64,000 nt of DNA, taken from assembly GCA_017644045.1 (NCBI GenBank), contig JAEPMI010000011.1, positions 242,763 through 306,762 on the forward strand, given 5' to 3'. The notes beneath the pieces were generated by a model. That model was not told where the DNA came from and searched no databases. It saw only the letters and a program-made list of their open reading frames with translations. Shown here piece after piece: positions 8,436 to 50,153 of the stretch (positions are counted from its first letter, which is position 1; each line of letters begins with the position of its first letter). The translations under genes were made by a program, and so were the position numbers. Source of the DNA: Deltaproteobacteria bacterium (GTDB lineage: Bacteria > Myxococcota_A > Polyangia > Polyangiales > Houyiibacteriaceae).

Positions 8436-10511
8436 CTACGGCCGGTCGGACTCGTCGTCCGAGGGCAAGAGCTGCTGCAGGAGCCAGCGCTGTCGGTAGA
8501 GATCCTCGTCCGCCTTGGTGAGGCGGTCGTGGATGCCGCCGACCATTCGGACGCTGATGAGCGCGGCCAGAACGCAGCTCACCATCATGAACACGCGCAG
8601 CGAGACCTCGTCGAAGGAGAAGACCGGCGAGCTGACCTGGATCGCGTCACCCACCACCGAGTAGCTGGCGGGGAAGAGGCCCATCCACTCGAGGATCCCG
8701 GGGATGACGATGGCGAAGACCGACGCGGCCAGGACGAATCGTCGCCCGATCCCGTCGAGGTTGAGCACGACCGCGGGCGCGGAGGCGACGACGATGACGG
8801 GCAGCAGGAAGTAGGGGCCGAGCACCAGGCCCACGGGGATGATGCTGAGGATCTGGACGACCGCCGCGAAGCGGAGGACCGACATGGGTACGGGGCGCTG
8901 GAGGGAGGCCCAGCTCTGGACGGCGCCGGCGATCATCGCGACGGCGGTGATCAGGATGCCGAGCTTGATGTTGTCGAAGCCGACCCACACCCAGAGCGGC
9001 GCGTTGAGCAGCCAGGCGTAGCGACCGAGCGCCAGGAAGCGCATGCCGGCCCGGCGCACGCCGTCCCGCCGATGCTCGAGCGCGCGGCGGGCTTCGGGCG
9101 GGAGCTTCGCCGGCGGTTTCGCGATCAGCTCGACCAGAGTGCGGCGAGCGACCTCCGAGTCGGGGTCGAGCGCGACGGCCATGCCGGCGCGCCGCATCGC
9201 TTCGCTGTGCGCCTTCGAGGCGTCTGCCTGACCTTCGTAGGCTCGCTGCGCGGCCCGCTCGGCGGCGGCGGCGTGGCGCATCGCGGCGGTCTTGCGACCC
9301 TGGTCCCACTGATCGCCGTCGAGGAAGCTCTGGACCGCGGCGTGGAGCTCGCGGGCGGTGCCGAAGCGCTCCTCGCGGTTGGGGGCCGTGGCCAGCCCGC
9401 AGATCTCGAGCATGAAGTGGCTGACCGGGTTCGGCTCCTCGAGGGTCTTGTAGCGGCCGTGCACGTCCAGGTCGTGGAGCGTGTCCGTGAGCATCACGTG
9501 CGCCTCGGCCTCCGGGATCAGCGCGTGGCCGCTGAGGACCTCGAAGAGGATCGCTCCGAGCGCGAAGACGTCGGCGCGACCGTCGAGGTCGTCGCCCCGG
9601 ATCTGCTCCGGCGCGAGATAGCCTGGTGTGCCGAGGAGCGACCCGGACATCGTCTGCAGATCCATGATCTCGCGGGTGTCGAGGTGGCCGCCGTCGGCGG
9701 CGCCGAGGACACGGGCGATGCCCCAGTCGAGCACGTACACCTCGCCGAAGTCGCCGACCATGATGTTCGAGGGCTTGAGGTCGCGATGGATCACACCGCG
9801 CGAGTGGGCGTAGTCCACCGCGAGACAGACCTGCGCGAACGCGTGCAGCAGCCGCTTGACCGGGAACTCCTCCATGGTTCGCAGGTGTCCGCGGCGACGG
9901 CGGTAGAGGATGCTCGAGAGGGTGTGGCCGCGGACCCGCTTCATCGTGAAGTAGGGGATGCCGCCCCGGGTCTCGCCGATGTCGTGGACGGGAACGACGC
10001 ACGGGTGGTCGAGCTGACCTTGGATGCGCGCTTCGCGGAGGAAGCGCATGCGCTTGGTCTCGTTGTCGGCGAACTCCGGCAGGAGGACCTTCATCGCGAC
10101 TTCGCGACCGACGTGGACGTCGCGGTAGAGCCGAACCTCGCCCATGCCTCCTTCGCCGAGCACCCCGCGACCGCGGTAGCGCTCCGACGCGTCCATCTCG
10201 CTGCTCGAGGTGGCGCCGCCGGAGCCGACGATCGTCTCGTCGGAGTCCTGGGTGACCATGGGCGGCGGCGGCATGGTCGAGACCCGGCCGGCGCCGAGGG
10301 GGAAGCCGCCCTCGAGCTCCTCCTCGACGTCGGAATGGCTCATGACCTCGGTCTGGTCGCCGGTCTGCGGCACGTGGCGTGGGCGCGGAGTGGTCATCGA
10401 GATCCGACCGCTGCGTTCGTCTCTCGGGAGCGGTTCCTGCGAAGCGTCGAGCTCGTCTTCGACCTTCTGGTCATCGGTGCTCAACGTCTTCGCGCCGCTA
10501 GTTGGACTCAC
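8436..10511 (-). CDS. Ser/Thr protein kinase with a C-terminal multi-pass membrane domain
   Basis: Motifs GEGGMGEV, AMK, HRDLKPSNIMV, DWGIA and GTPGYLAPE. The C-terminal ~200 aa contain several hydrophobic helices. Confidence 0.85.
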   Translation of the reverse strand: MSPTSGAKTLSTDDQKVEDELDASQEPLPRDERSGRISMTTPRPRHVPQTGDQTEVMSHSDVEEELEGGFPLGAGRVSTMPPPPMVTQDSDETIVGSGGATSSSEMDASERYRGRGVLGEGGMGEVRLYRDVHVGREVAMKVLLPEFADNETKRMRFLREARIQGQLDHPCVVPVHDIGETRGGIPYFTMKRVRGHTLSSILYRRRRGHLRTMEEFPVKRLLHAFAQVCLAVDYAHSRGVIHRDLKPSNIMVGDFGEVYVLDWGIARVLGAADGGHLDTREIMDLQTMSGSLLGTPGYLAPEQIRGDDLDGRADVFALGAILFEVLSGHALIPEAEAHVMLTDTLHDLDVHGRYKTLEEPNPVSHFMLEICGLATAPNREERFGTARELHAAVQSFLDGDQWDQGRKTAAMRHAAAAERAAQRAYEGQADASKAHSEAMRRAGMAVALDPDSEVARRTLVELIAKPPAKLPPEARRALEHRRDGVRRAGMRFLALGRYAWLLNAPLWVWVGFDNIKLGILITAVAMIAGAVQSWASLQRPVPMSVLRFAAVVQILSIIPVGLVLGPYFLLPVIVVASAPAVVLNLDGIGRRFVLAASVFAIVIPGILEWMGLFPASYSVVGDAIQVSSPVFSFDEVSLRVFMMVSCVLAALISVRMVGGIHDRLTKADEDLYRQRWLLQQLLPSDDESDRP

Positions 10512-16345: not shown

Positions 16346-16750
16346 GCGACTCCGACTCCGACGCCGACTCCGACTCCGACGCCGACTCCGGCGCCGACGC
16401 CGACTCCGACGCCGACTCCGACTCCGACGCAGACGCCGACTCCGACTCCGACGCCGACTCCGACGCCGACTCCGACGCCGACGCCGACTCCGACGCCGAC
16501 TCCGACGCCGACGCCGACTCCGACGCCGACTCCGACGCCGACGCCGACTCCGACGCCGACTCCGGCGCCGACGCCGACTCCGCCGCCGACGCAGACTCCG
16601 ACAGCGACCACCGACCACCGAGAGCCGACTCCCGAGAGCCGACAGCCGACTCCCGAGAGCCGACTCCCGAGAGCCGACCGCCGACAGCCGAGAGCCGACT
16701 CCCGAGAACCAACCGACGACTCCGACGCCCGAGTGGACGAGAGCCGACTC
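16346..16750. repeat. CCGAC[T/G] hexamer array (about 40 units, with a 30-nt higher-order unit) decaying into ~14-nt units
   Basis: Read directly from the sequence. tccgacgccgacgccgactccgacgccgac occurs three times at 16471-16560. ccgagagccgactc-type units run from 16610 to 16750. Confidence 0.95.
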
Positions 16751-16786
16751 TGGCCTGAATCGACGGGCTGGGTGTAGCTTGCGGCC

Positions 16787-21312: not shown

Positions 21313-23681
<2,369 letters not shown>

Positions 23682-23685
<4 letters not shown>

Positions 23686-25976
23686 CCGCGGAGCGACAAC
23701 GGCGGCGGCTTCCGCTGCCTCCCCGCCTGGCTCGCGTCCTGAAGGAGCGGGCCACGCGGGTGTCGCTCGCCCTCGCGCTCCTGCTCGGGCTCGGGCTCAG
23801 CTTCAATCGGCTCTCCGGGGTCCCCGGCGTCGAAGGCGCGCTCGCGCTCGGCGTGCCGCTGCCCTTCCTGGCTGCGATCCTCTCGTCGCGCGCCGTGGTG
23901 CGCGCGCGAGGTGGCGAGGGGCCGGGCGGGGCGCGCGATCTGATCCTGGACGCAGCGCTCCGCGGCGCGCTGCTCTGGCTGGTGCCGAGCCTGGTGCTGG
24001 CGGCGAACATGGTCTGGGTCCGCGTCTGCGAGCCAGGCCTGGGGCTCCTCTTCCTGGTGCTCGGTCCGTTCGTGGGCGTTCAGCTCGCGAGCCTGGCGGC
24101 GCTTTGGGTCGCGGTCGTGGTGCCACGCTTCGTGACCTTCGCGGCGATCCTGGTCCCGCTCGGCGGCGTGCTCTGGGGGCTCGGCGAGTTCTGGGCGACC
24201 CCTGCCATCTTCGTCTTCTCCCACACCGCTGGCTGGTTCCCGGGGACGCTCTACGACGTCGGCCGCGCGTTCCCCTTCGCGCTCGTGACCTATCGCGCGC
24301 TGACGCTCGTGTGGATCGCGGTGGCGGTGCTCGGCGTGTTGGCGGTCCGACCGGACAGCGCGCGCGCGGGCCGGCCGCGTTGGGCGCTGCTCGCGTTCGC
24401 GCTCTTGCTCACGGCCTGTGGTGTGGTGGGCTGGGCGAATGGGCCCGAGCTCGGTCACCGCAGCACCGTGGCCGCGATCGACGAGGCGCTCGGCAAGCGG
24501 GTGGTGAGCGAGCGCTGCGTGGTGCACCTCCCGCGCGAGGTCTCGCCGCACGATGCGTGGCGGCTCGCCCGCGACTGCGACTTTCGGGTCCACCAGGCCG
24601 AGCAGGCGCTCGCGGTGGAGCAGCGCGCCAAGGTGCACGCCTTCTTCTATCGGTCCGCGCAGGAGAAGGAGCGCTGGATGGGCGCTGGCCGGACCTACAT
24701 CGCCAAGCCCTGGCGCGACGAGGTCCACTTGCAGCTCTCCGGCTGGCCGCACCCGGTGCTGGCCCACGAGGTCGTGCACGCGGTCGCGGCGCGCGCCGCG
24801 CAGGGGCCCTTCCGCGTCTCCGGCCAGCTCGGCGGCTGGCTTCCGGACCCGGGGCTCATCGAGGGCACGGCCGTGGGCATCGACTGGCGCGAGCGCGACG
24901 GCATGGACCCGCACATGTGGTCGCGCGCGATGCGCGACCTCGAGCTCCTTCCGCCGCTCGACCGATTGCTGGGCCTGAGCTTTCTGCAGCTCCCGCACAG
25001 CGTCGCCTACAGCGGCGCCGGCTCGTTCACCCGCTTCTACCTGGATCGCTACGGCTCGGAGAAGCTGCGGCAGGCCTACCACGACGGCGACTTCGGGGGG
25101 CCGGTCGGCAAGACGCTGGAGGAGCTCGACGCCGAGTGGCAGGCGGTGCTCGACGAGCAGGTACTCCCCGAAGGCACGCTCGAGCTGGCGAAGCTCCACT
25201 TCGACCGGCCGAGCATCTTCGAGACCACGTGTCCCCACCGGCTCGCTGCGCTGAAGGGCGAGCTCGGTGGCGATCTGGCCGCAGGCGACGATCGGCGCGC
25301 CCAGGCCACGTGCGAGGAGATTCTGTCCATCGATCCCGGCAGCGCGACGACGCGCGCGGCGCTCGTCGGCGCGCTCGCGCGCGACGGACAGCAGGATGTC
25401 GCGGTCGAGCAGCTGACCCTGCTCGAGGGGGCGCCGCTGACCTTGGTGGCCAGCGCCCGCGCGTCGATGGCCGACGCCAAGTGGCTCGACGGAGACAGCG
25501 AAGGCGCCGCCGCGATCTACCGCGAGCTCATGGACGCCCCGCAGTCCGAGGCCTCGCGGCGGCAGCTCCAGGTGAAGCTGCTGGCCATCGAGGCGGGCGG
25601 ACGGCAGGAAGCGATCCTGCGCGGCCTCTTCCTCGGCACCAGCGGCCGCGGCTCGAGCGTCCCCGCGGTGGTCCACTTCGCGCACCTCCTCGACGGCATC
25701 CGGGAGGACGGCCTCGGCAGCTACCTCGCCGCCCGCCAGCTGCTCGACGCCGCATCGCGCCCCGATCTCGCGCTTCCGATGCTCGCGAGGTCACGCGAAC
25801 GCGGGCTTCCCTCCCCCGAGCTCGAACGGGAGGCGCTTCGCTTTCACGGGCGCGCGGCCTACGGGGCTCATCACTGGGACGAGTCGCGGGAGCTCTGGCA
25901 GGAGGCGGTGAGCGATCCGTTGCTGCAGCACGAGGCGGAGGACTGGTTGGCCCGGCTCGACTGGCGCGAGGACTGA
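23682..25976 (+). CDS. Polytopic membrane protein with an HExxH...EG (MA-clan-like) metallopeptidase motif and C-terminal TPR repeats
   Basis: TTG 23682 forms a TTGA overlap with the lon stop. About 8 TM helices. LAHEVVHAV...[11 protein letters not shown]-like C-terminal half. The ORF-track start 23496 lies inside lon. Confidence 0.6.
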
Positions 25977-26003
25977 GCAGCGCACCGTCGCTCGGGGGCG
26001 GCA

Positions 26004-26131
26004 GTCGGCGTTCGGCGTCGGCGTCGGCGTCGGAGTTCGGCGTTCGGCGTCGGAGTTCGGCGTCGGTGTTCGGCGTCGGTGTTCGGCGTCGGAGTTCGGC
26101 GTCGGAGTTCGGCGTCCGTGTCGGACTTCGG
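26004..26131. repeat. GTCGG-core 6/7-nt array (reverse-complement orientation of the CCGAC family)
   Basis: gtcggcgttcggcgtcggcgtcggcgtcggagttcggcg... Starts 28 nt after the stop of the TPR/peptidase gene. Confidence 0.9.
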
Positions 26132-26365
26132 TTGTGTAGCCTCGCTTCGCATCGGCTTGCCTTCGGCAAGGGGTGAAGGGGCTGGGCTCGTCCTGCTGAT
26201 CTGAGGCTGCCCTCGCGGTCGGGGTAAGTAAACCCGGCTCGCTGCGCTCGCCCCGCCTTCGGCGGCTGACGGGGTTGACTGACCCCGCCCGCGAGGGCGG
26301 GGGGGCGGGTGCGCAGGACGGCGTGGCGGTCACGTCGTCGCTCGCGCGCCGAAAGGAACCCAATC

Positions 26366-26698
26366 ATGCTTCTCGTTCAGGAACTCTCGTTGGAGCTCGT
26401 GGCTCTCGTTCATCGCGATGTCATGCCGAAGGCTCGCGTTGGCGATCCGGACCTCGCGGACCAGCTCGGTCGTGCGGTGCGGTCGACGCCGCTCAACATC
26501 GCAGAAGGCGAAGGCTACGGGCGGTCGCGTCGGCGGGCGCATCACTTCAAGACGGCGCTCGGCTCCGGTCGGGAGGTCTTCATCGCACTTCGACTGTTGG
26601 TCTCGACCAACGTGGTGCCTGTGGCTCAGGCGGCCGAGAGCGTTGCGCTCAGTGACCGGGTCAACAAGATGCTCTTCGGGCTGATTCGGAAGGGCTGA
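26366..26698 (+). CDS. Four-helix-bundle protein (23S rRNA intervening-sequence protein / DGR Avd-like family)
   Basis: MLLVQELSLELV...DQLGRAVRSTPLNIAEGEGYGRSRRRAHHFKTALGSGREV... matches the family signature. AAGGA Shine-Dalgarno lies before ATG 26366. The ORF-track start 26309 is probably too early. Confidence 0.8.
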   Translation: MLLVQELSLELVALVHRDVMPKARVGDPDLADQLGRAVRSTPLNIAEGEGYGRSRRRAHHFKTALGSGREVFIALRLLVSTNVVPVAQAAESVALSDRVNKMLFGLIRKG

Positions 26699-26714
26699 GG
26701 GTCGGGAACGCGGC

Positions 26715-26747
26715 GAGACCCGCCGGGCAGGCTGCCCGGCGGGTCTC
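26715..26747. terminator. Bidirectional hairpin between the convergent four-helix-bundle genes
   Basis: 16+1+16 perfect palindrome GAGACCCGCCGGGCAG g CTGCCCGGCGGGTCTC. No clear U-tract. Confidence 0.55.
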
Positions 26748-26760
26748 CGTCACGTTCGCG

Positions 26761-27099
26761 CTACGCGACCTGGTGCCGCGTGAGCTTCCAGAGAATCGCG
26801 CAGACGTGATCGAGCCGGTCGAGCGCCTGCTTCACGCCCGCGTTTCGCTTCAGCGCCCGAGTCGCCAATCCGAGCTCGATGCAGGTCTTGCTCTCACGAG
26901 CGGACCCGAGCGCGATCTGGAAGTGATTCCGCTGCCGCTTGCCGCCGAGCAGCCCGAGCCCCTCGGAGACATTGAGCGCCACGGACCGAGCCGCACGATG
27001 CAGCTGCTGAGCGAGCTCGGCATCGTGAGCCGAGAGCATCGGCATGACGTCTTCATGGACCGCCGAAACAGCGTCGAGCGAGAGAGAATAGATCTTCAT
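26761..27099 (-). CDS. Four-helix-bundle protein (23S rRNA IVS / Avd-like family), paralog of 26366..26698
   Basis: MKIYSLSLDAV...QQLHRAARSVALNVSEGLGLLGGKRQRNHFQIALGSARES... GGAGG Shine-Dalgarno lies 6 nt before ATG 27099. The ORF-track start 27252 adds an implausible extension. Confidence 0.8.
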   Translation of the reverse strand: MKIYSLSLDAVSAVHEDVMPMLSAHDAELAQQLHRAARSVALNVSEGLGLLGGKRQRNHFQIALGSARESKTCIELGLATRALKRNAGVKQALDRLDHVCAILWKLTRHQVA

Positions 27100-27319
27100 T
27101 GGAAACCTCCGGTTGTTGCTGCCGTGGACGCCTCGTCCTGGCGCAGCCCCTCCGCCCTCGAGCGCAGGCGGAGTCAACCCCTTGCCGTCGCGAAGCGACG
27201 GTGCGGAGGCCAAAGGCCGGAGCAGGGTTGACGCCGCCGAGCACGAGGGCACGGTTGAACGACCAGGACGAGAGCCCCATCACCACTGGCTGAACGTGCC
27301 GGGGCGGCTGGGGCTCCCA

Positions 27320-27602
27320 GTCGGAGCTCGGAGTCGGCCGTCGGAGCTCGGAGCTCGGAGTCGGAGTTCGGAGTTCGGAGTCGGCCGTCGGAGTTCGGAG
27401 TTCGGAGTTCGGAGTTCGGAGTTCGGAGTCGGACTCGGAGTTCAGAGTCGGAGTTCGGAGTCGGCGTCGGCGTCGGCGTCGGAGTTCGGAGTTCGGAGTC
27501 GGACTCGGAGTTCAGAATCGGAGTTCGGAGTCGGAGTCGGAGTCGGAGTCGGCGTCAGAGTCGGAGTCGGCGTCCGCGTCGGAGTCGGCGTCCGCCGTCG
27601 GT
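27320..27602. repeat. GTCGG/TTCGG-core 6/7-nt array (units GGAGTC, GGAGTTC, GGAGCTC, GGCGTC)
   Basis: gtcggagctcggagtcggccgtcggagctcgg...ggagttcggagttcggagttcgg... Ends 34 nt before the stop of the FAD-oxidase gene. Confidence 0.95.
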
Positions 27603-27635
27603 GTTGGGAGTCGCGCGCCGGGGTCCCAACGCGGC

Positions 27636-28991
27636 TCACGGAAGCGCGAAGACGTCGTTCTCCAGCCAGGGGTTCAAGAAGTGCCGGTTCGGGTCCCACG
27701 CCTGCCGGACGGCTTTGAAGTCGTTCATCTTCGGGTACATCGTCGGCAGGTCGCCGTAGCGCGAGAAGTGCTTGCCCCAGTGCGGGCGCGCGCCGGGGAT
27801 GGCCGCCCAGCGGCTCTCGAGCTCGTCGAAGAAGGCCTGGAAGCCCGGGGTGCCGATCGCGGTGGTCGCCTCGATGTAGAGGCTGTGGCGGTCGTAGTTC
27901 GGTGCGATGTAGCCGTCGCCCGGACCGACGAAGCGACCGTGGAGCGCGTAGTTGATCGGGTACTTGCCGACGGCCGCGTACGCCGCGACCAGGTCGATCG
28001 CTTCCGACCACGCCTGCGACGCGTGGGTCGCAGGGATGCTGTAGGCGATGTCCCAGTTCTTCGAGTAGGCGTCCTGGAAGTGGAAGGCGTCCGAGGCGGG
28101 GATGATCTCCTTCTCGACCTCGGTGACGGTTCCACCCGCGAGCTTGGTGAGCACGGGCGTCAGCGATGGCGCGTTCTTCGCGATCCACGGCACCCAGACG
28201 TTCGCGGCGCGGCTCTGCACCTGGGTGTTCAGCCACTCCTCGGCCTTCCGCTGGAAGCTCCACTCGTCGGCGTGCGCCTCGGAGGGATCCATCAACAGGA
28301 AGTAGAAGGTGTCCGCGCCTGGCATCCAGAACATCTCGACGTATTCGTACGACGCGATGAGGTCGTCGAACTCGGCGAGCGTGCGGTCGACCGCGATGTT
28401 CCGCTTGTCGACGTAGACGTTGAACTCCTTCGAGACCTCGAGCTCGATCGAATAGATCATCCCGAGCGACCCGAGCGCGACCTTCGCCGCCGGCATCTCT
28501 GCATCGCCTTCGCTCACCGTTCGCACGGCGCCCGTCGCGTCCACGATCTGCAGCTCGGTGATGCTGTCGGAGAAGCAACCACCGCTCTTGCCGACGCCAT
28601 GCGAGCCGGTCGAGATGGCTCCAGCGATGCTCGGCCAGGGAAAGAGCGTCGGCGAGCGCAGGGTCAGGCCGTTGCCGTGCGTGATGGCGATGAGCTCGCT
28701 CATCTTCATGCCGGCTTCGACCTTCACGAAGTGGCGCTCGGTGGGTCCGCTACCGGTCGACCGAATCCCCAGGAGCCGGTTCAGCCCGCTCGTCTCGATG
28801 ATGCTGTTCCCGCTCGGCAGCGGGATGAGCGGCGTCCAGCTGTAGCCGGTGCCGGCGGGGCGGATCCGCCGGCTGCCGGTCGCAGCGTTCGTGACCGCGG
28901 TCTGCAGCTCCGTCAGGCTCGTCGGCGTGTAGACGTCGGCGATGCAGCTCTGGTTGCCGGTCCAGTTCTTCCATTCGCGTGTGGTGGGCAT
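27636..28991 (-). CDS. FAD-linked oxidase of the gulonolactone / arabinonolactone / alditol oxidase type
   Basis: N-terminal WKNWTGNQ, an FAD-binding PCMH-type region (PAGTGYSW...GAISTGSHG), and C-terminal ARPHWGKHF. GAGGA Shine-Dalgarno lies 5 nt upstream. Confidence 0.8.
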   Translation of the reverse strand: MPTTREWKNWTGNQSCIADVYTPTSLTELQTAVTNAATGSRRIRPAGTGYSWTPLIPLPSGNSIIETSGLNRLLGIRSTGSGPTERHFVKVEAGMKMSELIAITHGNGLTLRSPTLFPWPSIAGAISTGSHGVGKSGGCFSDSITELQIVDATGAVRTVSEGDAEMPAAKVALGSLGMIYSIELEVSKEFNVYVDKRNIAVDRTLAEFDDLIASYEYVEMFWMPGADTFYFLLMDPSEAHADEWSFQRKAEEWLNTQVQSRAANVWVPWIAKNAPSLTPVLTKLAGGTVTEVEKEIIPASDAFHFQDAYSKNWDIAYSIPATHASQAWSEAIDLVAAYAAVGKYPINYALHGRFVGPGDGYIAPNYDRHSLYIEATTAIGTPGFQAFFDELESRWAAIPGARPHWGKHFSRYGDLPTMYPKMNDFKAVRQAWDPNRHFLNPWLENDVFALP

Positions 28992-28998
28992 CGGGTCC

Positions 28999-30696
28999 TC
29001 AGATGTTGATGCTGTTGGGGACCCGAGAGGGCCGGTAGAAGGCGCAGTCGCGATAGCGGCTGGCGTCGCGCGCGACGATGGTCGCCTCGACGTTCTTCAG
29101 GGCGTCCTGGAAGTCGCGCACGATCGAACGAGTCCGCGGCAGCCAGCCGAGTCGATAGCGCCAGTAGGTCCCGATGCTGTCGAAGTGGAAGTCGCCGAAG
29201 GTGCTGTACGTGAAGCGGAGGTTGGCCGCGTCGAAGGGCGGGAGCATCGCGCGCCAGTGTGCTTCCGTGTCATCGGAGGGATCGGCGGGCGGTGGCGCGT
29301 AGGCCGACGCCGCGAAGGCCGGCGGATAGCGGTAGTACTCCATCTGCGAGAAGTGCTGCGACGCGTGCCCGGCGGTCGCGGTGTAGACCACCTGTGCCAG
29401 GATCCGGACCAGCGTCGCCTTGTTGTCGAGCGCTTCGCCCGGCTTGAAGAGACCGCGGAGGTTCCCTTCGGACGGGTCGGTCAGCTCCGCGACCCACCGC
29501 TGCATCTCCCAATCGGCGAGCACCTCGGAATCGTGCGCGTAGTACACGTCGACGTAGCGCTCGACGAAGGTGCGGATGGCGGCCGTGTAGAGCCGCATGT
29601 CGTCGCGGTAGGGGTAGACGGCGGGGCCGACGTCGACTCCGCGAGCGCTCACCTCCTCATCGAGCTCGAGCTTCCACAGCTCGTCCTCGTGGTGGGCGAT
29701 CTTCACGGTCTCCCGGAGCTCCTCGAGCGTGCCCGCGTAGAAGGTGAAGTAGGCATCCGTGCGGTCGACGAAGTTGTTGTACGCCGCCTCGTTCGTCCCG
29801 AGCGTGAAGCGCAGGTGGGGCTCGAGAAGGATGTAGACCGGGTGGTTCCGCGCGAGGTTCCGATAGGTCGCCATGCAGAAGGGGTCCATCGTCAGGTGCG
29901 TTCGGAGCACGTGACCCACGGCGACGTGGAAGTTCTCGTCGGCCACCTCCACGTAGAGCTTGCCGATGCGCCAGCCCATGCCGTCGGTCGGGTACCAGAC
30001 GCGGTTCGGCGGGTCGGCGTTCTTCTGGTCGACCTGGATGACCAGGGGGACCAGGTCACAGCCACGCGAGGGATCCGGGTCCTCCCAGAAGACCACGACC
30101 GGTGCAGGCAGGTACTTGTTGCGCCAGCGGGTGTCACGATTGGCCGGCGGCCGCAGCGAGCGCTGAAGGATCTCGTAGTCGAGGAAGTAGATCTTCCCCG
30201 CCGCGATCTCGGCGTCGAGCGTGGCGCCCCCGAGCTGCGCCTCGATGGCCGGCATCACCGTCGCCGGGTCGAAGAAGCGCCCCTCGAGATCGGCGCGGCT
30301 GGGGACCTTTCGCAGGCTGAGCGGGTTCGGTCCGGCGATGCGCCGCCATGCGAAGTCGACGTCCGAGTCGAAGTCGTCCACGTAGTCCGGCACGCGTCCG
30401 ATGAAGAGGTCCCGGTAGGCCTCGAGCTTGTCGTAGCGAAAGACCGCCTTCTGGAGGAGCGTCAGCCCCTTCTTCGCCGCGCGGTTTGCCTGCGCGAGTC
30501 CGTACAGAGGAAGGAACTTCGCGACCCAGGGCAGCCGGATCTTCTCGCTGACGAGCGGGAGCTCGCCGCTCGACATCACCGGGTCGAGCTGGTTCTCGTT
30601 CGGCGGCATCACGGCGTAGCGCTTGGCGCGACGAGCGATGAGCGTCTTTCGGAGCGCGGGAAAGCGGGCGTCGAAGGGCAGGGTGGGTTGGAACAT
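28999..30696 (-). CDS. Lipoxygenase (mini-LOX, 565 aa, no PLAT domain)
   Basis: Exact H-x4-H-x4-H-x17-H-x8-H signature (HVAVGHVLRTHLTMDPFCMATYRNLARNHPVYILLEPH). GHASQHFSQ. C-terminal ...VPNSINI (terminal Ile). ATG 30696-30694 overlaps the upstream TGA by 1 nt. The 891-aa ORF-track version is an artefact. Confidence 0.9.
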   Translation of the reverse strand: MFQPTLPFDARFPALRKTLIARRAKRYAVMPPNENQLDPVMSSGELPLVSEKIRLPWVAKFLPLYGLAQANRAAKKGLTLLQKAVFRYDKLEAYRDLFIGRVPDYVDDFDSDVDFAWRRIAGPNPLSLRKVPSRADLEGRFFDPATVMPAIEAQLGGATLDAEIAAGKIYFLDYEILQRSLRPPANRDTRWRNKYLPAPVVVFWEDPDPSRGCDLVPLVIQVDQKNADPPNRVWYPTDGMGWRIGKLYVEVADENFHVAVGHVLRTHLTMDPFCMATYRNLARNHPVYILLEPHLRFTLGTNEAAYNNFVDRTDAYFTFYAGTLEELRETVKIAHHEDELWKLELDEEVSARGVDVGPAVYPYRDDMRLYTAAIRTFVERYVDVYYAHDSEVLADWEMQRWVAELTDPSEGNLRGLFKPGEALDNKATLVRILAQVVYTATAGHASQHFSQMEYYRYPPAFAASAYAPPPADPSDDTEAHWRAMLPPFDAANLRFTYSTFGDFHFDSIGTYWRYRLGWLPRTRSIVRDFQDALKNVEATIVARDASRYRDCAFYRPSRVPNSINI

Positions 30697-46436: not shown

Positions 46437-47957
46437 ATGCGCCGTTTGCAGCTTGTCTTTTTGACTTCCCTCGCCCTCGTGGCCCTCGCCGGTTGCGGTC
46501 GTTCCGTTCTCAGCACCGACGACTCCTTCGAAGACGGTGGCCCGCCGCGCGACATGATCGACCCCCCGGACCTGCCGGGTGAGGTCTGCGGCAACGGGTT
46601 CTGCGCCCCGGGCCTCGAGAGCTGCAACACCTGCGCGGCGGACTGTGGCGAGTGCCCCCGCGAGTGCGGCGACGGCCTCTGCGGTGGTGACGAGGACTGC
46701 GCGAGCTGCCCGGCCGACTGTGGCTTCTGCCGCGAGTGCGGCGACGGCTTCTGTGACCCGGACGTCGAGGCTTGCGACAGCTGTCCGGAGGACTGCGGCT
46801 CCTGCGCCGGCTGCGGCGACGGTGCCTGCAACGGAGCCGAGACCTGCGCCTCCTGCGCGATCGATTGTGGCGCCTGCGTCCGCTGCGGTGACGGCACCTG
46901 TCAGGCGGACCGCGGCGAGAGCTGCGCGACCTGCCCGAGCGACTGCGGCTTCTGCGACACCTGCGGCGACGGCGCGTGCACGGCTGGCGAGAGCTGCTCG
47001 AGCTGCCCGCGCGACTGCGGTCTCTGCGAGACCTGCGGCAACGGCCGCTGTGGCGCCGGCGAGGACTGCGCGTCCTGCCCCGACGACTGCGGGTTCTGCG
47101 TGACCTGCGGCGACGGCATGTGTGCCGGCAGCGAGAGCTGCTCGAGCTGTCCGGCCGACTGTGGCCGCTGCGAGTTCTGTGGGGACCGCACCTGCGGCAC
47201 CGGCGAGAGCTGCACCAACTGCCCGGAGGACTGCGGTCTCTGCGAGAGCTGCGGCAACGGCCGTTGCGCGACCAGCGAGAGCTGCTCCACCTGCCCGGTG
47301 GACTGCGGTCTCTGCGTCGAGTGCGGCGACGACCGCTGCAGCCCGTCGGAGAGCTGCAACTCCTGCCCCGGTGACTGCGGTGTCTGCGACACCTGCGAGG
47401 ACGGCTTCTGCCGCCCCGAGGACGGCGAGGACTGCCTCAGCTGTCCGGAGGACTGCGACGCCTGTCCGGCCTGCGGCGACGGCATGTGTGACGCGGGCAT
47501 CGAGAACTGCTCGACCTGTCCGGCGGACTGCGGGATCTGCCCCGGCTGTGGCGACGGACGCTGTCAGCCGCGGCGCGGTGAGACCTGCGCGAGCTGTGCC
47601 CGCGACTGCGGTGCGTGCTCGTTCTGCGGCAACGGGGTCTGCGAGGCGGACGAGTTCGAGAGCTGCACGAACTGTCCCGGCGACTGCGGGACCTGCCCCG
47701 GCGTCACCTGCATCGAGGTGGTGACCTGCACCTTCGGCTGCATCGAGCTGATGTCCTCTCCGCCGATGGTGTCGTTCACCTGCATCTCGACATGCGTCGC
47801 TCAGGCGTGTGCGGACGTGCAGTTCTTCGTCGATCAAGTCATCAACTGCGCCATTGGTCAGATCGGCACCTGCACCGACATCAGCTGCATCATGAACGAG
47901 TGCAGCTCCGAGATCGCGGCCTGCCTGACGGCGCCGCGCTGCCCGATGGGCATGTGA
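46437..47957 (+). CDS. Lipoprotein with 15 tandem Cys-rich repeats (Myxococcus-type cysteine-rich repeat) plus a distinct Cys-rich C-terminal domain
   Basis: Lipobox LALAGC. 15 copies of C-G-[DN]-G-x-C-x4-6-C-x2-C-x2-D-C-G-x-C at a ~25-aa (75-bp) period. Confidence 0.85.
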   Translation: MRRLQLVFLTSLALVALAGCGRSVLSTDDSFEDGGPPRDMIDPPDLPGEVCGNGFCAPGLESCNTCAADCGECPRECGDGLCGGDEDCASCPADCGFCRECGDGFCDPDVEACDSCPEDCGSCAGCGDGACNGAETCASCAIDCGACVRCGDGTCQADRGESCATCPSDCGFCDTCGDGACTAGESCSSCPRDCGLCETCGNGRCGAGEDCASCPDDCGFCVTCGDGMCAGSESCSSCPADCGRCEFCGDRTCGTGESCTNCPEDCGLCESCGNGRCATSESCSTCPVDCGLCVECGDDRCSPSESCNSCPGDCGVCDTCEDGFCRPEDGEDCLSCPEDCDACPACGDGMCDAGIENCSTCPADCGICPGCGDGRCQPRRGETCASCARDCGACSFCGNGVCEADEFESCTNCPGDCGTCPGVTCIEVVTCTFGCIELMSSPPMVSFTCISTCVAQACADVQFFVDQVINCAIGQIGTCTDISCIMNECSSEIAACLTAPRCPMGM

Positions 47958-48438: not shown

Positions 48439-48440
48439 AG

Positions 48441-48764
48441 CCGACTGCCGACTCCGACTCCGACAGCCGACTCCGACAGCCGACTCCGACAGCCGACTCC
48501 GACAGCCGACTGCCGACTCCGACAGCCGACTCCGACTCCGACTCCGACTCCGACTCCGACTGCCGACTGCCGACAGCCGACAGCCGACAGCCGACAGCCG
48601 ACAGCCGACAGCCGACAGCCGACTCCGACTGCCGACAGCCGACTCCGACTGCCGACAGCCGACAGCCGACTCCGACTGCCGACGACCGACAGCCGACCAC
48701 CGACTCCGACGCTGAGACAGCCGACTGCCGACAGCCGACGCCGACGCCGACACCGACACCCGAC
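48441..48764. repeat. CCGAC-core array mixing 6-nt (CCGACT) and 7-nt (CCGACAG/CCGACTG) units; fills the whole convergent intergenic gap
   Basis: Starts 3 nt after the NUDIX TAG and ends at the base before the stop of the minus-strand SGNH gene. Seven consecutive CCGACAG units at 48570-48618. Confidence 0.95.
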
Positions 48765-50153
48765 TCACTCCGCGTCGACGACCGGCCGGTCGATCACCAC
48801 CGTGACCGACTTCTCCTGCTCGGGGCTCAGCTCCACGACCAGGTGGTGCACGCCTCGCTGCAGGGTCACCTCGAGGTCTTCCTCGCCGCGGGCCGCGCAG
48901 GCCATCGGGTCGGCCTCGGCGCCGAGCAGGAACGTGCGCGCCCCTTCGTCGGCGAAGACGTTCACTTCGAGCCGGGTCTCTTCCTCGACCCGAATGCGGT
49001 AGACCCGCTCCGCGCCTCCGGAGGGCTCGGCGCCCTCGCACCCGTAGGCCGTCAGGGCGCTTCCTTCGGAGGGAACGAAGCGCTCGCCGAAGGGGACGCG
49101 CGTCAGGTGGAGCGGCGCCTCGGCCGTGCCCTCGCCTGCCATCTCGCGGGGCTCCGGGTCGGGGGCGCCTTCGCCGGCGACCACGGTCCGGCGCAACCGA
49201 TCGAGCAGCTCGAGGGTGCGCAGGTTCCGCTGGTTGCTGCCGTGCTGGAGCCCTTCTTCGCTCATCACGCAGGCGCGGCCACGACCGCCCTCGAGCAGCG
49301 TGTTCGGGTGCACTCCGTCTCCGGCGAGCCCGCGCCCCGGGAGGGCGTCCTGGGCGACGTAGAAGTCGAGGTAGGGCACCTGCCAGGCCTGGGCGATGGC
49401 ACGGCTGATCCGGTTGTAGCGCTTGGCCCAACCGTCCATCTCGGGATCGTCGCCCCGAGGTGAGGTCGCTCCGACGATCGGGATCAGCCCCCGGTCGAGC
49501 AGCTGGTCCAGCATTCGCTCCAGTCGCTCGGCGAAGCTCCGGGGGCGGCGCGCCTGGACGTCGTTGCCGCCGAAGAAGACCAGCGCGAAGCGTGCGTCGG
49601 TGGCGCGTGCCTCCTGGAGCGCGCGCGACGGGCGGCCCGCGAGCCCCTGACGCAGCGACCAGCCGACCTGGGCGGCGGTGCTCTCGCGCCCAAAGGGGTT
49701 GGAGCCGGCGGCGTTGCCGCGACGGAAGAACTCGAGGGTCTCGACGAGCTCGTCGTGGTCCGCGAGGTCCAGGTTGTCGCCGTCGTAGGCGAAACAGTGG
49801 AGGAAGGCCCGGCTCTCGACCGACGAGCCCCCGAGCTTGATGAAGACGTCGTCGCGGTGCTCGCGGCCCTCGCGCAGGGCGCGGAGCCGGGCGACCATCG
49901 CCGGAGTCAGCGCCGAGTGGATGGCCGGCGCGACCCACGTGAGCGCCGGGTCCGGCGGTGGCTCGGGGATCAGCCGGACCTCTTCGGCCGGCTCCGGCTC
50001 GGGGTCCGCCGTCGCCCGTGCCGGCCGCTCGTCGCCGGTGGGCTCGGCCATCTCTGCAGTCTCCGGTTCGGGAGGCGTGGCGCAGGGCGCGAGCGCACTG
50101 ACGGCCGCGACACTCAGCCCGAGGGCCAACGCTGCGTGCACCGGAGACGACAC
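48765..50153 (-). CDS. SGNH/GDSL-like hydrolase lipoprotein with a C-terminal beta-sandwich-like domain
   Basis: Lipobox LAPC. FFGGNDV and GDGVHPN blocks. Confidence 0.55.
   Translation of the reverse strand: MSSPVHAALALGLSVAAVSALAPCATPPEPETAEMAEPTGDERPARATADPEPEPAEEVRLIPEPPPDPALTWVAPAIHSALTPAMVARLRALREGREHRDDVFIKLGGSSVESRAFLHCFAYDGDNLDLADHDELVETLEFFRRGNAAGSNPFGRESTAAQVGWSLRQGLAGRPSRALQEARATDARFALVFFGGNDVQARRPRSFAERLERMLDQLLDRGLIPIVGATSPRGDDPEMDGWAKRYNRISRAIAQAWQVPYLDFYVAQDALPGRGLAGDGVHPNTLLEGGRGRACVMSEEGLQHGSNQRNLRTLELLDRLRRTVVAGEGAPDPEPREMAGEGTAEAPLHLTRVPFGERFVPSEGSALTAYGCEGAEPSGGAERVYRIRVEEETRLEVNVFADEGARTFLLGAEADPMACAARGEEDLEVTLQRGVHHLVVELSPEQEKSVTVVIDRPVVDAE

Follow-up and report, generated by a model that had tools for sequence, protein, structure and literature searches.

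The subject of this analysis is a 64,000-nucleotide (64-kb) stretch of contig JAEPMI010000011.1 from a deltaproteobacterial assembly (GCA_017644045.1), hereafter the window, and within it a cassette of ∼1.2 kb at positions 26132-27318. Two convergent, paralogous genes (A and B), each behind a structured leader, make up this cassette, which lies between two tandem arrays with a TCGG core (Table 1). Many of these parts had been pointed out in an earlier note on the same DNA. Sequence inspection and Tandem Repeats Finder (TRF) place both arrays as described there, in direct GTCGG orientation on the + strand; TRF delimits the left array at 26005-26116 (period 13, 8.6 copies) and the right array at 27319-27592 (periods 6/7/13/70). 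The left array starts 16 to 28 nucleotides (nt) past the stop codon of an upstream gene for a protein of 826 amino acids (aa), and 34 nt separate the end of the right array from the stop codon of a flavin adenine dinucleotide (FAD) oxidase gene. A further hairpin begins right where the left array stops and is kept in all A-type copies of the cassette described below (L002, L003, L006, L008, L010, and L011; the L numbers designate related loci).

Table 1. Features of the cassette and its borders, with positions in the window
Feature	Coordinates	Strand	Basis
Left TCGG-core tandem array, units GTCGGCG / TTCGGCG / GTCGGAG	25992-26131	+ (G-rich on +)	TCGG-density scan
5' proximal hairpin of A unit, TAGCCTCGCTTCGC...GGCTTGCC-UUCG-GGCAAG...	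26135-26185	+	Sequence, fold, conservation
A-type leader, structured RNA element (probable)	26178-26368	+	Covariance-model match, 178 bits, E 4e-40; consensus fold, covariation
Gene A, 110 aa, four-helix bundle, S23p / 23S-rRNA-intervening-sequence-protein family	26366-26698	+	PF05635, E 1.3e-12; TIGR02436, E 4.1e-14
Perfect 16+1+16 palindrome common to both convergent genes	26715-26747		Palindrome scan
Gene B, 112 aa, paralog of gene A	26761-27099	-	PF05635, E 8.5e-14; TIGR02436, E 5.7e-17
B-type leader, homologous to A leader	27097-27281	-	Covariance-model match, 137.7 bits, E 1e-30
Right TCGG-core tandem array, units AGTCGG / AGTTCGG / AGCTCGG	27319-27602	+ (G-rich on +; C-rich in gene B sense)	TRF, TCGG scan

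The two ∼110-aa paralogs reported earlier are present, with 39% identity between them (E 2e-21), and the palindrome on which their genes converge is indeed perfect. By its sequence, this palindrome probably terminates transcription from both directions as a hairpin that lacks a U-tract; a terminator scan of positions 25900-27700 that required a T-run did not call it and returned no U-tract terminators. The hairpin is kept, with compensatory changes, in L002, L005, L006, L007, L013, L015, and L017. The earlier note had further proposed, from an identical 10-mer before each gene, that gene and leader were duplicated together as a mirror pair. The 10-mer, GGGGTTGACT, occurs once per strand in the 64 kb, at 26271 (+) and 27172 (-), and the duplication runs far beyond it: positions 26162-26320 match 27134-27294 in inverted orientation at 69% identity over ∼160 nt, and the whole 1.2-kb segment is thus a quasi-palindrome. 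The extra short GC hairpins listed in the note are found as TTCG-loop hairpins at ∼26153-26170 and 26253-26265. Its description of the segment as visibly lower in GC is weak, as the drop is marginal (64 to 70% inside the cassette versus 72 to 74% to the left) and the FAD-oxidase gene to the right is equally low.

Genes A and B encode four-helix-bundle proteins of the PF05635/TIGR02436 family. They score 48.3 and 52.1 bits, respectively, against PF05635 (curated cutoff, 33.8) and 52.7 and 61.9 bits against TIGR02436 (cutoff, 24). The AlphaFold2 model of gene B as a single chain (predicted local distance difference test score, 94.5) has helices at residues 2-25, 27-48, 53-79, and 87-108. Foldseek placed this model closest to two S23p-family structures, 2RLD (BT_0352) and 2GSC (XCC0516), with TM-scores of 0.80 to 0.81; Avd, the accessory protein of diversity-generating retroelements (DGRs; 4DWL), and a DGR ribonucleoprotein (8UBE) scored 0.72 to 0.74. 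A profile of A, B, and close relatives retrieved 2GSC and 2RLD from the PDB sequences (E 2e-4 and 2e-3), for which a profile search was required, as a single-sequence phmmer search with gene B found no match in the same set. Hence, assignment to the Avd-like / 23S-intervening-sequence family, as proposed from the sequence, holds by three kinds of search (hidden Markov model, profile to PDB, and fold). Assembly into homopentameric rings is a mark of this family, which A and B may share.

Within this family, A and B form a narrow clade of a very large assemblage, since the profile retrieved 5,269 of 1.84 billion cluster representatives at an E value of ≤1e-3 and only 3 at ≤1e-30. Against the narrower NCBIfam subfamily models NF008911 and NF008912, both proteins score 27 to 36 bits, far under the cutoffs of 124 to 137. 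Several of the representatives (P0058, P0071, P0077, P0094, P0138, and others) are 250 to 280 aa long with two matched stretches; these relatives have the form of tandem fusions of two four-helix-bundle domains, which fits paired A and B proteins that act together. Both genes are under purifying selection: the ratio of nonsynonymous to synonymous substitution rates among homologs is about 0.1 to 0.5 for both genes (0.12 to 0.49 for gene A), and gene A of the window differs from that of L003 by zero nonsynonymous changes at a synonymous difference (pS) of 0.17. GC content at third codon positions is 0.76 in A and 0.81 in B, and neighboring host genes range from 0.88 to 0.94. The PF05635 domain is also listed, in one large-scale study, among proteins linked to adaptation modules of clustered regularly interspaced short palindromic repeats (CRISPR), which adds to the nucleic-acid-handling associations of the domain.

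Each gene is preceded by a leader of ∼190 nt. Eleven leaders (six A-type and five B-type) were aligned, and RNAalifold folded the alignment into one long hairpin, with an outer stem CTCGTCCTG/CAGGACGRG, a 15-pair middle stem GCCCU.../...AGGGC, and an upper part formed by a CCC/GGG closing stem and small apical hairpins. In the window, the long hairpin of the A leader spans 26187-26322 (∼140 nt; outer stem CTCGTCCTG/CAGGACGG, middle stem GCCCTCGCGG.../...CCGCGAGGGC) and carries a CCGCC-UUCG-GGCGG hairpin at its apex; the Shine-Dalgarno region and the ATG come after it. The B leader has its long hairpin at 27132-27272 (outer stem CTCGTCCTGG/CCAGGACGAG), and its minimum-free-energy fold is likewise one long hairpin (z = -4.8). 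The CCGCC..GGCGG hairpin that the earlier note placed after the 10-mer is therefore present, but as part of a much longer conserved hairpin and not as a structure of its own. The 10-mer itself belongs to the 3' arm of this ∼140-nt covarying hairpin, which rules out a promoter-like box standing alone before a small hairpin.

The pairing is well supported. In the hand-made alignment, 94.9% of cells pair, versus 86.6% in column shuffles (0/500 reached the observed value), 38 to 49% of cells pair when the partners are slid, and 9 pairs show changes on both sides. In a model-fitted alignment of 16 leaders, which is biased toward the structure, 13/34 pairs are changed on both sides (0/500 shuffles). 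The features described above exceed chance. In the window, the covariance model matches the A leader, the B leader, and no other place, at the E values given in Table 1 (4e-40 and 1e-30); over ∼170 kb, every strong match lies directly upstream of a family gene. Among A-type copies the hairpin is 83 to 96% identical, while the coding regions of the same copies differ at 42 to 62% of synonymous sites, which makes the hairpin the most constrained part of the cassette. Divergence between the A and B leaders parallels that between the genes, and in the more distant clade of L018 the outer stem is replaced by a compensated GCTCCG/CGGAGC.

The leader probably acts as RNA, read in the sense of the gene. 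Two indirect signs point this way: an excess of G.U (∼20 cells) over A.C (2 cells) on the sense strand of the hand-made alignment and apical loops that are repeatedly cUUCGg or UACG tetraloops. A TTGACT motif in the 3' arm is invariant in 11/11 aligned A- and B-type leaders, even though the bases paired with it vary; L017 has TTGACA in its place, and in L018 the motif is lost. Its invariance, together with the lack of a -10 sequence after it, suggests a sequence-specific contact; as a -35 box it was rejected, since no copy has a -10-like sequence 16 to 18 nt downstream and the motif lies inside the covarying stem. Pairing of CAGGACG with a downstream CGTCC, as in an attenuator, was also discarded, as it is not kept in L012. 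In Rfam 15 the leader has no match at gathering thresholds, and at an E value of ≤10 it retrieves only generic hairpin or microRNA-like families far below threshold. The leader pattern is absent from the viral contigs searched, and the cassette has no match in plasmids. In the literature, we found no description of the leader, of the convergent A/B pairing, or of the array association.

The cassette is one member of a multicopy, dispersed family in Sandaracinus-like Myxococcota and not a one-off; the genome that matches best also bears the lineage name Sandaracinus. Copies were recovered by exact-protein look-ups, one genome scan, and one metagenome pattern scan, and they lie beside unrelated housekeeping genes in at least 8 contexts. 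Apart from the context shared by the window and L003, the neighbors are a photolyase-like gene (L002/L016), a gene for a 1,750-aa tetratricopeptide repeat (TPR) protein (L005, from a metagenome-assembled genome [MAG] of a Sandaracinus sp.), a beta-helix protein gene (L006), a gene in a formyltransferase and deformylase gene cluster (L007), which we take from its N terminus to be PduO-like, a MATCAP-like peptidase gene (L010), and a FecR/VIT/VWA protein gene (L011); L015 lies between a hydrolase gene and an HXXSHH gene. Additional copies are found on short contigs (L008, L009, and L012). One NCBI MAG holds at least 6 family members on 4 contigs (accessions MBO6933456 to MBO6939244), and the Sandaracinus MAG holds a full copy (L005) and a remnant (L013). 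Assemblies end repeatedly within the cassette, as expected of a repeated, palindromic element. The two genes also occur in shuffled combinations; in L005, an A gene of 74% identity accompanies a B gene of 88% identity. About two-thirds of the units (6 to 7 of 10) have the same orientation as a host gene situated just upstream of them. Read-through from the host as the sole source of expression is ruled out by L002, L010, and L011, which are divergent from their neighbors; an internal or array-proximal promoter must therefore exist.

Association with the arrays is constant. All leaders with enough upstream sequence adjoin a TCGG-core array (14/14), and ∼130 kb of other sequence contained only ∼3 unlinked noncoding arrays. 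Read along the gene, the array before the leader is of the G type for A-type leaders (7/7) and of the C type for B-type leaders (6/6). Across independent contexts, the pair therefore keeps one and the same orientation within an array of uniform polarity. The homologous A and B leaders face opposite array polarities, which places the arrays outside the inverted duplication from which the pair arose. More distant clades retain the order of array, leader, and gene: L017 has a (CTCGGA/C)n array and a leader scoring 91 bits, and its gene is followed by a hairpin and a convergent B-like gene; L018 has a (CCTGAA)n array followed by leader and gene. Array length and unit composition vary even between orthologous sites (window versus L003). 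The earlier note had described a repeat-bounded cassette and, as one option, an insertion mediated by the flanking arrays; the linkage of the arrays to the module stands, but they are not a boundary unique to it or made by its insertion, as such arrays recur at intergenic sites of the genome.

In the window, cassette-free TCGG-core arrays are found at 16347-16760, between two sigma-54 activator genes, and at 48439-48766, where the array fills the entire spacer between convergent NUDIX and GDSL-lipase genes. Both are C-rich on the + strand and start 2 to 6 nt past stop codons; they could be empty landing sites or the scars of lost cassettes. A coding role for the intergenic arrays is ruled out by their mixed 6/7/13 periods and their indels. 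The same repeat motif is also used as coding sequence, since a (TCCGAC)14 / (TCGGAG)n repeat at 924-1008 falls within the 3'-terminal part of a DctQ-like gene (- strand), where it encodes an acidic (Ser-Glu)n tail followed by DDDEDEEDDR*; by its sequence, L012 1274-1307 appears to resemble this tail. In L018 at ∼95-275, between the (CCTGAA)n array and the leader, a segment of ∼170 nt is bounded by an inverted repeat of ∼26 nt (CTAGCCCGGAAAAATCACCAG...CTGGTGATTTTTCCGGGCTAG) and may be a small inserted element.

A simpler account would take A and B as ordinary paralogous four-helix-bundle genes that happen to lie in array-rich intergenic regions, with neither mobility nor a link to the arrays and with the leader as a conserved 5' untranslated or promoter region. 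Some genomes are known to hold paralogous families of TIGR02436 proteins, the superfamily is very large (5,269 representatives), cassette-free arrays exist in the window, and no mobility gene lies in or near any copy. We nevertheless consider this account unlikely. It does not predict that every testable leader adjoins an array when unlinked arrays are so few, that polarity is fixed relative to the cassette across independent contexts, that close relatives occupy at least 8 unrelated contexts, that A/B combinations are shuffled (L005), or that the hairpin is far better conserved than synonymous sites. Nor does it predict different variants at one syntenic site, as described next for L013.

The orthologous site was found in a Sandaracinus MAG (GCA_964462035.1, L013), which has the same gene order as the window: ExbD, P450, kinase, lipoxygenase, FAD oxidase (95% identical), peptidase-like gene, and Lon. 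What remains in its spacer between the FAD-oxidase and peptidase-like genes (9357-9677, 320 bp) is an A-type gene reduced to its 3' half, together with the terminator hairpin and a few CCGAG repeats. Identity of this remnant is 80% with the solo A gene of L006 but only 73% with A of the window, and the flanking genes are 84 to 89% identical to those of the window. As the remnant is nearer to L006 than to the A gene at the orthologous position, the same intergenic site has held different cassette variants, with decay. The synteny comparison proposed in the earlier note, which sought the flanking genes adjacent to each other without the cassette, thus located the site but showed it to be occupied by a decayed copy of a different variant instead of empty.

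Other copies extend this decay series. L004 keeps A and the terminator, with B cut to its last ∼20 nt and joined to an array; L015 keeps B, with only the last ∼95 nt of A, likewise joined to an array; L006 has A alone; and L013 has half of A. In every truncated copy (L004, L006, L013, and L015), the side lost is the array-facing (5') side. A telomere-like "healing" model of the arrays was rejected, as the array polarities beside truncated copies are mutually inconsistent under it.

The surroundings of the cassette supply no obvious partner. At gathering thresholds, Rfam has no family in the 64-kb window (no rRNA and no tRNA) and likewise none in 12 related loci. Pfam scans of 30 further open reading frames (ORFs) of the window detected no reverse transcriptase, transposase, or integrase; the ORFs scanned are ordinary chromosomal genes (Lon, kinases, sigma-54 activators, ExbBD, IMPDH, P450s, RecQ, and transporters). 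In the flanks of the relatives, precomputed or scanned domains include no RVT domain and no mobility protein. Self-BLAST of the window returned no pair of the template/variable repeat (TR/VR) type, only the arrays, a Cys-rich coding repeat, and two paralog pairs. PADLOC gave only a spurious Cas6d match (E 0.005), and PHROGs gave none. The description of the genes as orphans, with no rRNA, reverse transcriptase, or TR/VR pair, is thus borne out in the window and in the flanks of the relatives. The cassette is also self-contained, as proposed, and linked to its arrays.

These absences bear on a derivation from a retroelement, in which the cassette would be a remnant or trans-acting part of a DGR or retron-like system, and its Avd-like proteins and structured RNA would cooperate with a reverse transcriptase from elsewhere in the genome and might make the arrays. 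In fold, the proteins are similar to Avd and to the DGR ribonucleoprotein (4DWL and 8UBE, TM-scores above), a structured RNA stands beside an Avd-like gene as in those systems, PF05635 co-occurs with DGRs, and the arrays beside cassettes of distant clades vary in motif. Set against this, neither the more than 30 ORFs of the window nor the flanks of relatives yielded a reverse transcriptase, and there is no TR/VR-like pair or target gene in the window and no match to a retron or DGR RNA family in Rfam; the cassette proteins are only ∼10% identical to Avd, the nearest structures are the non-DGR S23p proteins 2RLD and 2GSC, and arrays are also present without cassettes. With neither a reverse transcriptase nor a TR/VR pair, the cassette is not a DGR component, and we judge a retroelement origin in the wider sense to be very improbable.

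A second alternative takes the long imperfect hairpins as DNA sites that a recombinase uses in trans, the cassette being a miniature inverted-repeat transposable element (MITE), an integron-type cassette, or the substrate of an HUH transposase. The whole cassette is quasi-palindromic with 160-nt inverted ends (69% identity), it is dispersed without a recombinase, and its leader has GTAAAC/GTTGAC boxes that we take to be faintly reminiscent of the R''/R' cores of attC. With integron attC cassettes and with repetitive extragenic palindromes and bacterial interspersed mosaic elements (REP/BIME), it shares small size, scarcity of promoters, dispersal, an imperfect hairpin, intergenic placement after the 3' ends of genes, and the lack of its own recombinase. 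However, the attC analogy fails on stem topology, as the AAC/GTT-like boxes lie near the apex, with 25 or more further base pairs below them, and not at the base; there is also no integrase, and the units are embedded in microsatellite-like arrays in place of an array of cassettes. Hairpin topology, tetraloops, and the G.U excess point to a sense-strand RNA, and leader divergence between A and B keeps pace with that of the genes, as would be the case for cis-regulatory RNA. By the marks of transposons, insertion sequences, and MITEs, the cassette has no transposase (and no flank holds an integrase, a transposase, or a REP-associated tyrosine transposase), its ends are inverted leaders, its B side has a fuzzy boundary with no sharp common termini, and no target-site duplication is visible, such a duplication being unrecognizable inside repeat arrays. 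We consider an element of this kind quite unlikely.

A close known parallel is with intervening sequences (IVSs) of 23S rRNA that carry an S23p ORF (Leptospira, Coxiella, and others; PMC4990558). One could regard the cassette as a free-living chromosomal relative of these elements, in which RNase III would cut the leader hairpin and so free the cassette transcript from RNA read through from the host, and in which the S23p-like protein would serve the propagation of the element, a role hypothesized for the IVS by Ralph and McClelland (quoted in PMC4990558). The ORF family is the same, the ∼140-nt hairpin is a long, near-perfect duplex of a kind suited to RNase III, and a host gene lies directly upstream of the 6 to 7 of 10 units that are co-oriented with it. 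Variable tandem heptamers are likewise found just upstream of the S23p ORF in the Coxiella IVS, which has terminal inverted repeats cut by RNase III, and the IVSs share with the cassette a patchy distribution and a suspected selfish or mobile nature (PMC4990558).

There are also differences. IVSs occupy helix 25 or 45 of 23S rRNA, whereas the cassette is flanked by protein-coding genes, with no rRNA in the window or in the 12 related loci. The terminal inverted repeats of an IVS enclose the ORF, whereas the cassette stem (26187-26322) lies entirely upstream of it. Lying outside rRNA and having a stem that does not enclose the ORF, the cassette is not itself an rRNA IVS. Moreover, it has two ORFs converging on one hairpin and arrays that are hundreds of bases long, and its ORFs are under purifying selection, unlike the decaying ORF of the Coxiella IVS (PMC4990558). 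Both proteins fall far short of NF008911 and NF008912, cleavage by RNase III is a predicted suitability of the hairpin, and three units are divergent from their neighbors. Kinship with the IVS in this form is thus improbable. In a more speculative version, to which we give rather little credence, the cassette would be the free-living chromosomal form of the IVS element itself, a selfish module whose leader RNA and S23p-like protein form a ribonucleoprotein that aids its own spread through tandem-repeat arrays, which it might target or even generate.

We prefer, by a modest balance, to read 26132-27318 as one copy of a dispersed, multicopy, nonautonomous cassette that is moved, replaced, and eroded by recombination within the arrays and whose leader RNA probably provides the cis-acting target of the encoded protein. 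The architecture, copy number, conservation, polarity rule, and decay series of these loci are directly observed, and from them we infer the following route. Arrays present at many intergenic sites would serve as portable homology arms. Homologous recombination or gene conversion between arrays would copy the cassette into new arrays, thereby preserving polarity, and the same process could exchange one cassette variant for another at a given site. Array recombination, together with slippage and microhomology, would erode cassettes from their array-facing ends. As for RNA binding and the cellular role of the proteins, the leader hairpin would act in cis, as the element by which the encoded protein, taken to form rings and bind nucleic acids, and/or RNase III controls or makes use of the transcript, through autoregulation or as a ribonucleoprotein.

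Several observations weigh against this array-borne cassette. Among the loci examined, no truly empty orthologous site and no recombination intermediate were recovered. The array on the eroded side of L004, L006, and L015 has the polarity opposite to that of the intact pair, and in L002 (∼9735-9770) the upstream array flips from the CCGAC type to the GTCGG type ∼25 nt before the cassette (...GCCGACCGCC|GTCGGTGTCGG...), which forms a local palindrome; a simple crossover from array to array does not by itself explain these inverted polarities (L004, L006, L015, and L002). Motifs differ in distant clades, e.g., the (CCTGAA)n of L018, and the cassette could generate its arrays rather than land in existing ones. 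Binding of the leader by the protein is suggested by analogy with Avd in the DGR ribonucleoprotein, and the case for a hairpin acting as RNA, not DNA, hangs on wobble pairs and tetraloops, which are indirect signs. A sigma-70 promoter scan of 25900-27700 returned zero sites, and three units (L002, L010, and L011) are divergent from their neighbors, so that their transcription needs a source other than read-through. Finally, most of the related loci are short metagenome contigs.

Like other S23p-family genes, which in many genomes are small stand-alone ORFs of unassigned function present in several copies, A and B pass the family cutoffs and share the four-helix bundle (TM-score, 0.8). Their clade is set apart by the fixed convergent pairing, the conserved structured leader, and the flanking arrays. 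PF05635/TIGR02436 is an abundant family (more than 5,000 clusters at 50% identity match the profile) in which only Avd, in DGRs, has an assigned function, and the nature of ORF-bearing 23S rRNA IVSs has been a standing question since the early 1990s. The leader, as a previously undescribed structured element, probably RNA, that is tightly linked to these genes and more conserved than they are, makes RNA binding and autoregulation directly testable. Spread of the cassette is clear evidence that such genes travel in a compact unit that has no recombinase of its own, along a route that we propose from the comparison of loci. The polarity-fixed association may also reveal microsatellite-like arrays as landing pads or erasers of small genes in high-GC genomes. 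Should the free-living form of the IVS prove true, it would supply the large orphan PF05635 family with a function, in RNA-guided or RNA-bound propagation, and account for how the IVS arose. If the array-borne cassette is the wrong reading, the locus is still a well-defined pair of orphan paralogs of a known family.

Three minor observations concern the neighboring sequence. The 826-aa gene upstream of the left array (23496-25976), labeled a TPR-peptidase in the earlier note, has no Pfam match at an E value of ≤1e-5, and its L013 ortholog has no Pfam match on record; the label is thus unconfirmed. A long imperfect tandem repeat at 46587-47705 (periods 72/75/144, ∼70 to 75% identity) lies in a Cys-rich, CxxC-type coding region and is unrelated to the cassette. 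On the other side of the right array, a lipoxygenase gene (28999-30696) stands directly upstream of the FAD-binding, ALO-type oxidase gene (27636-28991). Lipoxygenase genes are probably uncommon in bacteria, and the synteny of this lipoxygenase-oxidase pair with the P450 and large kinase genes is kept in L013.

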